Below are positions 11,045 through 13,610 of a stretch of 64,000 nt of DNA, one piece after another; within the stretch, counting starts at the first letter, position 1, and each line of letters opens with the position of its first letter. Source of the DNA: Sphingomicrobium sp. (GTDB taxonomy: Bacteria; Pseudomonadota; Alphaproteobacteria; Sphingomonadales; Sphingomonadaceae); contig DASSOB010000018.1 of assembly GCA_035701045.1 (NCBI GenBank), positions 4,583 to 68,582 on the forward strand, read 5' to 3'. Under the pieces are notes generated by a model. The model was not told where the DNA came from, searched no databases, and worked only from the letters and a program-made list of their open reading frames with translations. The translations under genes and the position numbers were made by a program.

Positions 11045-11430
11045 GTCATCCCGGCCCTGAGCCGGGATCCACCTTCTTATTGATCAGCGACTCAAATCCG
11101 AAGTCCTCGGCCAAATCGCGCCAAGTCGGATTCTCCATTACGATGAGTTGGATTTTCCAATCGCGGTGCCAGCGCTTGATAGACTTCTCGCGACGGATCG
11201 CAGTTTCCATTCTTTCGTGCACTTCGAACCAGACGAGCCGCTTCACCCCATAGCGCGTCGTGAATCCCTTCGTGATACCCTCTCGGTGTTGCCAGGTGCG
11301 GCCCAACAAGTTCGAAGTCACACCTGTATACAGCGTGCCGTGAAAGCCACTTGCAAGCAGGTAAACACAGGGACTCGCTCCATGTGCGTCATCGAATTGA
11401 AGGTGGACCCCGGGTCAAGCCCGGGGTGAC
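11045..11430. mobile_element. Hairpin-TIR-bounded GIY-YIG cassette 1 (candidate selfish element)
   Basis: 32-nt inverted repeats at 11045-11076 and 11399-11430 match at 27/32 positions, and the stem differences are compensatory. They enclose only the GIY-YIG ORF. The interior is visibly more A/T-rich than its surroundings (by eye). Confidence 0.5.
11046..11392 (-). pseudogene. Stand-alone GIY-YIG nuclease gene with a frameshift between the ATG and the GIY motif
   Basis: ATGs at 11392 and 11383 (MTHMERVP) are in one frame. CVYLLASGFHGTLYTGVTSNLLGRTWQHREGITKGFTTRYGVKRLVWFE...REKSIKRWHRDWK is in the next frame. One extra C in the run at 11370-11372 would join them. The ORF track starts at internal GTG 11321. 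Confidence 0.7.
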
Positions 11431-11441
11431 GGTGGAGGGTC

Positions 11442-13121
11442 CTACCGCGTCAGCTTGCGGTAGCTCGTCCGGTGCGGCCTCGTCGCTTCCTCGCCCAACC
11501 GCCGCACCTTGTCCTCCTCATAGGCCTGGAAGTTGCCCTCAAACCATTCGACGTGGCTGTCGCCCTCGAACGCGAGGATGTGCGTCGCGAGGCGGTCGAG
11601 GAAGAAGCGATCGTGGCTGATGACCACCGCGCAGCCGGCGAAATTCTCGATCGCCTCTTCCAGTGCGCCCAAAGTCTCGACGTCGAGGTCGTTGGTGGGC
11701 TCGTCAAGCAACAGCACGTTGCCGCCGCGCTTCAGCATCTTGGCGATGTTGACTCGGTTGCGCTCGCCGCCTGACAGCTTTCCGACGTTCTTCTGCTGGT
11801 CCTGGCCCTTGAAGTTGAACGCGCCGACATAGGCGCGGGTTGACTGGTCGTGGCCGTTGACCTTCATGTAATCGAGGCCGTCGGAAATCTCCTCCCAGAC
11901 GTTTTTCGAACCATCGAGATGATCGCGGCTCTGGTCGACATAGCCGAGATGGACGGTGGGCCCGATGTCGACTTCGCCAGAGTCCGGCTGTTCCTGCCCG
12001 GTGATGATCTTGAACAAGGTCGATTTGCCCGCGCCGTTCGGTCCGATCACGCCGACAATCCCGCCCGGCGGCAAAGTGAAAGAGAGATCGTCGAACAGCA
12101 GCTTATCGCCATAGGCCTTGGTGACGCCCTTGGCCTCGATGACCTTGCCGCCGAGCCGCTCGGGCACCTGGATCAGGATCTCCGCCTTGCCGGGAACATG
12201 CTTTTCCTGCGCGGCGACGAGCTGGTCGAACTTGGCGATGCGCGCCTTGGACTTGGTCTGGCGAGCTTTCGGCCCCTGCCGGATCCACTCGAGCTCGTCC
12301 TTGATCGCCTTCTGGCGGCCGGTTTCCTCGCGCTCCTCCTGCTCCATGCGCTTGGATTTCTTCTCGAGGTAGGTCGAGTAATTGCCCTCGTAGGGGAAGT
12401 ATTTTCCGCGATCCAATTCGAGGATCCAGCTCACCACATTGTCGAGGAAATAGCGGTCGTGGGTGATCATCAGCACCGCGCCCGGATATTCCTTGAGGTG
12501 GTTCTCGAGCCACTGGACGCTCTCCGCGTCGAGGTGGTTGGTGGGCTCGTCGAGCAGCAGGATCGAGGGCTTCTGGATGAGCAGCCGCGTCAGCGCGATG
12601 CGGCGCTTCTCGCCGCCCGACAAATTCTCGACCGGCCAGTCGGACGGCGGGCAGCGCAGCGCCTCCATCGCGACTTCGAGCTGGTTGTCGAGAGTCCAGC
12701 CGTCGACCGCATCGATCTTGCCCTGGAGTTCGCCCATCTCCTCCATCAGCGCGTCGAAGTCGGTGTCGTCCTTGGGGTCGCCCATTTCCGCTGAGATCGC
12801 GTTGAACCGGTCGACCATGTCGGCGACGTCGCGCGCACCGTCCTTGACGTTCTCCAGCACATTCTTCTTGGGGTCGAGCTGCGGCTCCTGCGGCAGATAG
12901 CCGACAGTGATGTTCTCGCCCGGCCATGCCTCGCCCTGAAAGTCCGTGTCGATGCCAGCCATGATCTTCATCAACGTCGACTTGCCGGCGCCGTTCGGGC
13001 CGACGATGCCGATCTTGGCCCCGTGATAGAATTGCAGGTTGATGTGGCTGAGCACCGGCTTCTGGGCGCCGGGGAAGGACTTGGTCATGTCCTTCATCAC
13101 AAAAGCATATTGGGCGGCCAT
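11442..13121 (-). CDS. ettA: Energy-dependent translational throttle protein EttA (ABC-F)
   Basis: Start ATG 13121 (MAAQYAFVMKDMTKSFPGAQKPVLSHINL). Two ABC cassettes: GPNGAGKST twice, LSGGEKRR and LSGGERNR. 559 aa. Confidence 0.92.
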   Translation of the reverse strand: MAAQYAFVMKDMTKSFPGAQKPVLSHINLQFYHGAKIGIVGPNGAGKSTLMKIMAGIDTDFQGEAWPGENITVGYLPQEPQLDPKKNVLENVKDGARDVADMVDRFNAISAEMGDPKDDTDFDALMEEMGELQGKIDAVDGWTLDNQLEVAMEALRCPPSDWPVENLSGGEKRRIALTRLLIQKPSILLLDEPTNHLDAESVQWLENHLKEYPGAVLMITHDRYFLDNVVSWILELDRGKYFPYEGNYSTYLEKKSKRMEQEEREETGRQKAIKDELEWIRQGPKARQTKSKARIAKFDQLVAAQEKHVPGKAEILIQVPERLGGKVIEAKGVTKAYGDKLLFDDLSFTLPPGGIVGVIGPNGAGKSTLFKIITGQEQPDSGEVDIGPTVHLGYVDQSRDHLDGSKNVWEEISDGLDYMKVNGHDQSTRAYVGAFNFKGQDQQKNVGKLSGGERNRVNIAKMLKRGGNVLLLDEPTNDLDVETLGALEEAIENFAGCAVVISHDRFFLDRLATHILAFEGDSHVEWFEGNFQAYEEDKVRRLGEEATRPHRTSYRKLTR

Positions 13122-13199
13122 GGGGTCGCGGATGTCCTTATCGAATGAGTGTTTGGAGGGTTGAGGGCCAGTTAGGCGCTGGCGCCGATGAATTCCAGC

Positions 13200-13610
13200 C
13201 CGTTCCCCTGCGAAGGCAGGGGTCCAGACCCGGACTGGAGCTTCAGCGGAAGTCCGGTCATGCTGCGGCCGATGAAAGCCGGGTACGTCTACATCATGGC
13301 GAGCGGCCGCAACGGAACGCTCTACATTGGCGTGACGAGCGATCTCGTGAAACGCGTCTGGGAGCACCGCAACGGCGTCGTTGCGGCTTCACGCGGAAAT
13401 ACGGATGCAAGCTGCTCGTCTGGTACGCTGCTTACGACGAAATTCAGCAGGCGCGATTGCGCGAGCTTCAGATGAAGAAATGGAAGCGCCTGTGGAAGCT
13501 CAGCGAAATCGAGCAGATGAACCCGGACTGGCGGGACCTGTATCCGACGCTGTTGTGAAGCCCCTGCTTCCGCAGGGGCTGTCTGGACCCCTGCCTTCGC
13601 AGGGGAACGG
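13200..13610. mobile_element. Hairpin-TIR-bounded GIY-YIG cassette 2 (candidate selfish element)
   Basis: CCGTTCCCCTGCGAAGGCAGGGGTCCAGAC (13200-13229) is the perfect reverse complement of 13581-13610. A third hairpin with the same stem lies at 13560-13579. Confidence 0.5.
13260..13558 (+). pseudogene. Stand-alone GIY-YIG nuclease gene with an internal 1-nt frameshift
   Basis: MKAGYVYIMASGRNGTLYIGVTSDLVKRVWEHRNGVV is in one frame. GFTRKYGCKLLVWYAAYDEIQQARLRELQMKKWKRLWK...NPDWRDLYP is in the next. The junction is GTTGCGGCTTCACG at 13381-13394, and one extra G would restore the frame. Confidence 0.75.

Follow-up and report, generated by a model that had tools for sequence, protein, structure and literature searches.

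The gene ettA in a 64-kb stretch of Sphingomicrobium sp. DNA (contig DASSOB010000018.1, positions 4,583 to 68,582; "the window" hereafter denotes this whole stretch of 64,000 nucleotides) lies between two short units, each of which consists of one GIY-YIG nuclease gene enclosed by terminal inverted repeats (Table 1). The gene of unit 1 (11044-11431) is on the minus strand and that of unit 2 (13200-13610) on the plus strand, and PF01541 is the only Pfam domain in both open reading frames (residues 2-74 and 8-80). A first-pass annotation of the window had described two GIY-YIG units of about 390-410 bp around ettA, bounded by inverted hairpin repeats, and this description holds: the arms are 33 nt long and 85% complementary in unit 1, and 30 nt long and 100% complementary in unit 2. 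Hairpin scans likewise confirmed that every arm contains a perfect GC-rich hairpin of 7-8 bp with TCCA on its inner side, and in both units the tag end of the hairpin points outward and the TCCA end inward. The single GTCA hairpin family that had been proposed accommodates the arms of unit 1 and a gene-less inverted doublet at 49778-49862, which exists as described, but not the arms of unit 2, which carry CCGTT instead. The proteins of the two units share 51% amino acid identity and their hairpins differ, placing them in separate subfamilies. Between unit 1 and the ettA stop codon there are 10 nt, rather than the 12 nt first given; unit 2 begins 78 nt before the start codon of ettA, on its upstream side, and abuts the ybaB stop codon with its other end. 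The two copies lie within 2.5 kb.

Each unit had been credited with one stand-alone open reading frame of about 95 aa; both turned out to be frameshifted. In unit 1, the ATG at 11392-11390 is out of frame with the GIY motif, for which there is no in-frame start codon, and comparison with an intact orthologue at the ettA locus of a close relative (L088) places a 1-nt deletion at 11369/11370. The orthologous L088 cassette is 89% identical to unit 1 in nucleotide sequence over the whole unit (86% amino acid identity by tblastn) and encodes an intact 115-aa protein, MTEVERIPCVYLLASGFHGTLYTG..., including the tail that is encoded by the hairpin; in unit 1, too, the hairpin arm (11046-11076) codes for the last residues of the frame (..VDPGSGPG). 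Unit 2 switches frame in mid-gene, with a 1-nt deletion at 13386/13387 relative to four intact homologues, all of which are one base longer. We read these frameshifts as real because the neighbouring ettA and dnaX genes are intact (559 and 542 aa) and the lesion in a third nuclease gene of the window, of the DUF559 type, is a 2-nt deletion. As judged from their sequence, both GIY-YIG genes of the window are pseudogenes, i.e. relics, and since they carry frameshifts they cannot be the active enzyme. The hairpins of the window could be served, if at all, only by an intact paralogue acting in trans; with both nuclease genes dead, the two cassettes are passive, as is the gene-less doublet.

Relationship to Ssn nucleases and CGTC-tagged repeats

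A family of nucleases with such an arrangement has been described by Chenal et al. (Nat Commun 2025; PMC11893778). Its Neisseria member ssnA, a 94-aa single-domain GIY-YIG gene (CDD cd10448), shows the architecture NTS-ssnA-NTS, in which NTS, CGTCATTCCCGCGMAVGCGGGAATCYRG, is the CGTC-1/dRS3 element; Ssn genes are flanked by such motifs, termed Ssn-related motifs (SRM), across many phyla, with the motif nearby in 71% of Ssn homologues and on both sides in 42%, and Sphingomonas is counted among the genera rich in such hairpins (PMC11893778). In experiments with purified proteins, the enzymes of three Neisseria species and of Wolbachia bound the hairpin in single-stranded DNA alone and cut a few nucleotides upstream of it, leaving the reverse strand, double-stranded DNA and RNA uncleaved (PMC11893778). 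The earlier suggestion that the hairpins are substrates of the enclosed nuclease, in a REP/RAYT-like system built on a non-RAYT enzyme, thus finds support in experiments on homologues, although the copies in the window are dead. The accompanying belief that the idea had not been described was mistaken: the Ssn system is in print, together with an explicit analogy to IS200/IS605 elements, RAYT genes and repetitive extragenic palindromes (REPs), with mobility only hypothesised (PMC11893778).

Units 1 and 2 are very probably two decayed cassettes of the Ssn type, in which a GIY-YIG gene is flanked by inverted copies of its own recognition hairpin. The catalytic spacing Tyr-11-Tyr-47-Glu in repaired unit 2 (Y7, Y18, E65) and in the L088 orthologue of unit 1 (Y11, Y22, E69) is identical to that of N. 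meningitidis SsnA, with Y6, Y17 and E64 of 94 aa (PMC11893778). The protein lengths, 95 aa for repaired unit 2 and 115 aa for the unit 1 orthologue, are within the range of about 90-150 aa for single-domain Ssn proteins, and in both units hairpins are present within 500 nt on the 5′ as well as the 3′ side of the gene. The published SRM pattern (HGTCWYN(0-2)YYVSBRHN(0-5)WNVSBRGN(0-2)RNCYNB) matches the ettA-side arm of unit 1 exactly and its outer arm with 1 mismatch. Besides this arm, the sole exact match in the window is a solo CGTC hairpin at 23838-23865, which is also close to the Neisseria NTS consensus; inverted flanking hairpins of 20-50 nt with a 5′ CGTC(A) tag and a 3′ CC(A) tail, and gene-less hairpin copies elsewhere in the genome, are further features in common with the Ssn family. 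When 1 mismatch is allowed, the pattern becomes unspecific in this GC-rich window (12 matches versus 15 expected), and structure-based and inverted-repeat tests were used in its place.

Further evidence comes from 80 loci with homologues of unit 2 (55-87% identical), taken from one-genome-per-species contigs of sphingomonads, Rhizobiales, beta-, gamma- and deltaproteobacteria, as well as contigs labelled Dehalococcoidia, Planctomycetales, candidate phyla and others. The 200 nt upstream of each gene were aligned to the reverse complement of the 200 nt downstream, and pairs of segments displaced by 0.9-2.1 kb served as controls. An inverted repeat scoring above the 95th percentile of the displaced controls was present in 75 of the 80 loci (median score 25.5 versus 8.5), so that inverted flanks, the presence of which at homologues elsewhere had been named as a check on the idea, are indeed the rule. 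These arms were found without any hairpin criterion, yet nearly all of them form hairpins of one design. Many are identical to the Neisseria NTS consensus, e.g. CGTCATTCCCGCGAAAGCGGGAATCCAG, and exact matches to it also border homologues with only 55-64% identity to unit 2. Across 72 distinct arms aligned in register (the left arm of unit 2 and 71 arms of the loci), 92% of the cells in the 8-bp stem are paired and compensatory double changes occur in 7 of the 8 pairs, a value reached in none of 500 shuffles; sliding the partner by 1-3 columns lowers pairing to 27-52%. Wobble pairs are rare in the stems, and therefore a constraint acting at the DNA level, or on both strands, fits better than one acting on RNA. 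The tags of the nearest hairpins point outward in 31 of the 55 loci with both sides assigned, a moderate majority; as many loci have doublets on each side, this count carries little weight.

Within 300 nt of the gene, the published degenerate motif reaches 14 times the density that it has beyond 700 nt, but it misses the sphingomonad variant to which unit 2 belongs (GTN-CCCCTGC-GAAG-GCAGGGG-YCCAG). Arms of this type also flank the closest homologues (L001-L005 and L089). In these cassettes the subterminal stem-loop between left arm and start codon is conserved as well (in the alignment of the L001-L005 type, in L089 and in L172), with the compensatory variants CCGAGCT/AGCTCGG and GCGAGCT/AGCTCGC. 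It may be mentioned in this respect that the extra inner hairpins of unit-2-type cassettes could be either subterminal recognition sites or mRNA structures.

The family to which the two genes belong is very large: at least about 7,950 of the 8,000 scored candidates had E < 1e-10. Other sphingomonad loci, too, often have two Ssn-type genes close together, within 6 kb (L010, at 3001-3276 and 5345-5677; L016, at 3001-3282 and 4305-4565), and most of the close homologues (proteins P0121-P0240) are on contigs shorter than 2 kb, as is usual for repeated DNA in assemblies. Paired genes and short contigs point to an element that is present in several copies and breaks assemblies, whereas Neisseria has a single ssnA; in the window, moreover, both of the two copies are pseudogenes.

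The hairpins connect this family with a second body of work. Di Nocera et al. (2013; PMC3733652) defined CGTC-tagged REPs as hairpins with a stem of 8-9 bp and a loop of 4-5 nt, preceded by an unpaired tag of the CGTC type and followed by a CCA tail; they are found for the most part as head-to-head dimers and chiefly in alphaproteobacteria, among them Sphingomonas wittichii and Sphingobium, and were concluded to have, apparently, no dedicated transposase. The unit 1 arms and the doublet at 49778-49862 conform to this definition, with CGTC, 8 bp, 5 nt and CCA, and in the same terms the unit 2 arms read CCGT, 7 bp, 4 nt and TCCA. Stem and loop lengths, the CCA tail, the head-to-head dimers and the CGTC tag with its TGTC- and CCTC-like variants are all held in common; the difference is that no dedicated enzyme was found in 2013, whereas here, as in the work of Chenal et al., the repeats flank a GIY-YIG gene.

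Several other systems share some of these features. REP/REPIN-RAYT systems also have a nuclease gene between inverted hairpin repeats, gene-less singlets and doublets, and recognition of the hairpin in single-stranded DNA, so that the present units are REPtron-like, but in layout only: the enclosed genes are GIY-YIG and the tags of CGTC type rather than GTAG, fold and chemistry are unrelated, since a GIY-YIG hydrolase works without a covalent tyrosyl-DNA intermediate and hence lacks a strand-transfer activity of its own, and RAYTs are typically single-copy, in contrast to the multi-copy sphingomonad cassettes. GIY-YIG homing endonucleases such as I-TevI have the same catalytic domain and selfish-gene logic and probably likewise spread via host repair after cleavage, but possess an extra DNA-binding domain, cut double-stranded DNA at the intron-less or intein-less allele and are not flanked by inverted hairpins. 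UPF0213/YhbQ-type proteins are also single-domain GIY-YIG proteins of about 100 aa, although only distantly related, and we know of no link between them and flanking hairpins; members of UPF0213 are the only solved structures that could be found by sequence for the GIY-YIG proteins (PDB 1ZG2, E = 1e-4; 1YWL, E = 1e-2). The window thus opens no new category: it adds to the Ssn/SRM system a case with two decayed copies, in a Sphingomicrobium-like genome.

Presence and absence of cassettes around ettA

No protein on record is identical to the EttA of the window, and the ettA locus was therefore compared with those of 11 metagenomic or genomic relatives, in which EttA is 96-97% identical (about 88% nucleotide identity). 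Here ettA is a resident host gene lying outside both cassettes, and it is syntenic in all 11 relatives, which share the gene order dnaX, ybaB, AMP-binding enzyme gene, ettA, variable segment, OmdA/DUF8412 and DUF1905. Close relatives differ in the presence or absence of cassettes at three sites in this neighbourhood, and the insertion polymorphism that had been named as a check is therefore present. Between ettA and OmdA, where the window has unit 1, the intact orthologous cassette is found in L088 and is absent from the 10 other relatives, which have 366 nt of unrelated DNA (L081-84), an EamA gene (L085), a TPR-sulfotransferase gene (L086/87), an open reading frame of 279 aa (L089) or nothing (L090/91). 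Between ybaB and ettA (13179-13611 in the window), unit 2 stands in place of a 1.6-kb AMP-binding (acyl-CoA-synthetase-like) gene, which is present in 10 of the 11 relatives, at about 728-2445 of the loci. In L089 this site measures 165 nt, in which a solo CGTC hairpin is found together with a remnant of the AMP-binding gene, its final few tens of nucleotides, and in L088 the AMP-binding gene is accompanied by a solo unit-2-type hairpin (2407-2424) at the exact position of the unit 2 right arm. Both flanks of ettA are thus variable regions in this lineage, and the hairpins found at junctions of gene deletion or replacement at the ybaB/ettA site suggest that they may take part in local gene loss and replacement.

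The third site, between OmdA and DUF1905, is empty in the window, as it is in L081 and L088, where the two genes abut, and is filled in L089 by an intact unit-2-type cassette. It provides a clean filled/empty pair, in which the insert extends beyond the repeat-bounded unit by about 4-7 nt on either side: the filled L089 allele runs from ...CAGAAGAAATAGCATT into the insert, which begins with GTACCCCTGC and ends with GCAGGGGTAC, and continues with GGGATTTGATCACC, and the empty L088 junction reads ...AAGAAGAAATGATCAC. Had both strands been cut a few nucleotides 5′ of the tag, extra nucleotides would be expected outside each tag, as they are seen at this single site. The L089 cassette provides OmdA with a new stop codon and DUF1905 with a new TTG start; as reading frames run into repeat arms in TrmFO (see below) and in the unit 1 tail also, insertions remodel gene ends.

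The homology between unit 2 and its copies in other Sphingomicrobium genomes extends from 13202 to 13608-13613, ending at the outer ends of the arms, and therefore the cassette behaves as a discrete mobile unit; none of the 80 homologous loci is adjacent to ettA. Judging from the loci compared, gain and loss affect the cassette as one block bounded by its repeats, and it occurs as such at different sites. This comparative evidence bears on a question left open by Chenal et al., namely whether the hairpin-gene-hairpin unit is mobile (PMC11893778), in that filled and empty sites between relatives and sharp homology boundaries indicate that the cassette moves, or is lost, as a block. The close orthologues in L088 (115 aa) and L089 (113 aa) are intact and have known hairpins, and they offer substrates for biochemistry outside Neisseria.

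The position of the units on both sides of ettA, which headed the first-pass annotation, has no functional support. It most likely reflects two independent insertions in a rearrangement-prone neighbourhood rather than a function connected with ettA. There is no sign of a role for ettA: where relatives are missing one or both cassettes, the gene is in the same position with its sequence preserved, and the bracketing looks incidental. That the two cassettes act as transposon ends moving ettA is very improbable: nothing but the bracketing itself speaks for such a composite element, while the dnaX-ybaB-...-ettA-OmdA neighbourhood of ettA is common to all relatives, whether they have cassettes or not, the cassettes are of different subfamilies, and both nucleases are inactive. 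This reading was rejected on synteny. A benefit to the host, with the hairpins serving as mRNA stabilisers or terminators, or as recombination-limiting marks at ettA, and the nucleases as domesticated partners, is also improbable, albeit less so. REPs are often transcribed and located directly after stop codons (PMC3733652), and the cassettes here abut stop codons (of ybaB and ettA); the NTS-gene-NTS arrangement lowers transformation in Neisseria (PMC11893778); and random insertion would be unlikely to place two cassettes at one gene (by our estimate, some 2 in about 60 intergenic regions). Against this stand the relatives with 96-97% identical EttA in which one or both cassettes are missing and other genes occupy the sites, the inactivation of both nuclease genes, the absence of any terminator-like or Rfam signal, and the rarity of wobble pairs. 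Least credible of all is the notion that these are ordinary terminators, or chance inverted repeats beside unrelated small open reading frames. The genome is GC-rich, and shuffled sequences contain about 35 perfect 7-bp hairpins of all kinds per 64 kb, compared with 55 in the window; but the exact form GTCA/7-bp stem/5-nt loop/stem/TCC occurs only 4 times in 64 kb, in the two unit 1 arms and in the doublet at 49778-49862, and the family is confined to the cassettes, one doublet and one solo site. None of these hairpins is followed by a run of T, no terminator-like sites were predicted in 10800-13900, and no Rfam family matched in 10500-14200. The hairpins are not, then, spread over gene ends as the first-pass annotation had required of terminators, and this rarity, the missing T-runs, the layout common to 75 of 80 independent loci and the strong covariation refute the terminator or chance reading.

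How Ssn cassettes might move can be outlined from their homologues, for which the initial steps have been demonstrated. In single-stranded DNA, each arm would fold into a hairpin, and the nuclease would bind this hairpin together with its unpaired 5′ tag and C-rich 3′ tail and hydrolyse the strand a few nucleotides 5′ of the tag; with tags pointing outward on both strands, each strand should be cut once, immediately beyond the cassette. GIY-YIG enzymes hydrolyse DNA without a covalent intermediate and cannot religate it. Because such a hydrolase cannot rejoin DNA, movement would need host pathways, and spread would probably proceed via host replication, recombination or repair at the hairpins, one possible route being homing-like conversion at solo hairpins or doublets. 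In such homing-type spread, which is a route within the Ssn explanation and leaves the identity of the units the same, the nuclease would nick solo hairpins or doublets while these are single-stranded, and repair from a cassette via its arms of about 30 nt would follow, so that a doublet, or a segment between hairpins, would become a cassette. We regard this route as possible but rather doubtful. The states of L088 and L089 at the ybaB/ettA site hint at it, with events that are not polarised: L088 has the solo unit-2-type hairpin where the window has a full cassette without the AMP-binding gene, and in L089 the solo CGTC hairpin lies at the junction of the AMP-binding gene deletion. Gene-less doublets share the outward-tag geometry, religation is beyond the enzyme, and NTS-gene-NTS affects recombination of incoming DNA in Neisseria (PMC11893778). 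The arms are, however, short for RecA-dependent recombination, the empty alleles of the clean L089 filled site have no pre-existing hairpin, and gain versus decay to a solo hairpin is not polarisable from the loci compared.

Several points weigh against regarding the two units as mobile Ssn cassettes, and should be kept in mind. Their Ssn membership rests on domain, size, catalytic spacing, flanks and intermediate homologues. The unit 2 arms, having no GTCA tag, do not match the published SRM pattern, and an altered stem sequence abolishes cleavage by the Neisseria enzyme (PMC11893778), so that each subfamily would need its own enzyme. Both GIY-YIG frameshifts are located in short runs of G or C, and sequencing error cannot be fully excluded. 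At the junctions inspected (L088, L089 and the window sites) there is no target-site duplication; protein P0172 was present on 36 contigs in one and the same genomic context, which says nothing about recent mobility; and a geometry of one cut per strand is in itself insufficient to account for excision or insertion. Direct transposition by the nuclease is hypothetical, here as in the published work.

Table 1. Coordinates of hairpin arms, nuclease genes and associated features in the window
Feature	Position	Strand	Details
Unit 1 outer arm, away from ettA	11044-11076	+	CGTC-tagged hairpin at 11048-11068: CGTCA-TCCCGGC-cctga-GCCGGGA-TCCACC
Unit 1 Ssn-type GIY-YIG pseudogene	11046-11392	minus	Pfam PF01541, E = 1.8e-13
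Unit 1 arm adjoining ettA	11399-11431	minus	CGTC-tagged hairpin at 11407-11427: CGTCA-CCCCGGG-cttga-CCCGGGG-TCCACC
ettA, ABC-F energy-dependent translational throttle, 559 aa	11442-13121	minus	NCBIfam NF008775, 943 bits
Unit 2 left arm	13200-13229	+	Variant hairpin at 13205-13222: CCGTT-CCCCTGC-gaag-GCAGGGG-TCCAGAC
Subterminal stem-loop between left arm and start codon of unit 2	13230-13257	+	CCGGACT...AGTCCGG
Unit 2 Ssn-type GIY-YIG pseudogene	13272-13558	+	Pfam PF01541, E = 1.3e-13; 95 aa if repaired
Third hairpin, directly after unit 2 stop codon	13559-13580	+	Same-place hairpin kept in L001-L005 and L089
Unit 2 right arm	13581-13610	minus	Hairpin at 13588-13605; abuts ybaB stop codon at 13611
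Solo CGTC hairpin	23838-23865	+	CGTCATCTCCGCGAAAGCGGGGACCCAT; exact match to published SRM pattern; directly after gene end
Gene-less inverted CGTC-hairpin doublet, unit 1 type, REPIN-like	49778-49862		CGTCA-TGCTGAA... / CGTCA-CCCTGAA..., tags outward, 31-nt spacer
DUF559 (Vsr-like PD-(D/E)XK) nuclease pseudogene between inverted arms	~51196-51675	minus	Pfam DUF559, E = 4e-28 after frameshift repair
Gene-less inverted doublet of G-rich double hairpins, DUF559-arm-like design	55839-55960		CCCTCTCCCCCTTGCGGGAGAGGG-AGGGG-CCCGCTGCGAAGCAGTGGG..., adjoining enolase gene

A DUF559 gene between hairpin arms

The bracketed layout that had also been noticed at a DUF559 nuclease gene of the window was recovered, with inverted arms of 61 nt that are 75% complementary. 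Each arm contains two hairpins joined by G-rich linkers (GGGGAGGGGAACC...GGTGGAGGGGTAA), and the last residues of TrmFO are encoded by the left arm (51196-51260). Compared with its orthologues, the gene has lost 2 nt in the IEVDG motif. In contrast to the Ssn cassettes, the gene order here (trmFO, DUF559, EF-hand gene) is conserved across about 45 soil-metagenome contigs, which therefore represent one old insertion and not independent cases; the arms are kept in these contigs, with compensatory changes in the stems. Distant DUF559 homologues (35-50% identical) have a different hairpin repeat, CCCCCCTTTGGAAAAGGGGGGTGAGGGGGGATTT, on both sides in about 20 of 29 cases, and overall the flanking inverted repeats exceed the control threshold in 63 of 72 loci. 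A solved structure was found for DUF559 (3HRL).

Our literature search found no paper linking DUF559 to flanking repeats. A Caulobacter DUF559 protein has been interpreted as a mismatch-repair nuclease (PMC12907096), and the DUF559 gene of the window may be read in the same way. If the association with repeats holds, partnerships between hairpin repeats and nucleases would be based on at least three unrelated nuclease folds, and this would bear on the reading of "solitary Vsr-like" genes in alphaproteobacteria. The wider proposition, in which Ssn cassettes are autonomous multi-copy elements of sphingomonads, with gain and loss among close relatives still going on, and the agent of CGTC-REP dispersal, and DUF559 is a second such enzyme family, has in our opinion somewhat less than an even chance of being correct; if true, Ssn cassettes would be the long-sought agent behind the dispersal of these repeats, marking junctions of deletion and replacement. 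Finally, long perfect palindromes of a shared type were observed at 32878-32908 and 36587-36616 (AGGGACAGTCCCTCGTCGAGGGACTGTCCCT and AGGGACCGTCCCCGTTCGGGGACGGTCCCT), and may represent another repeat family.

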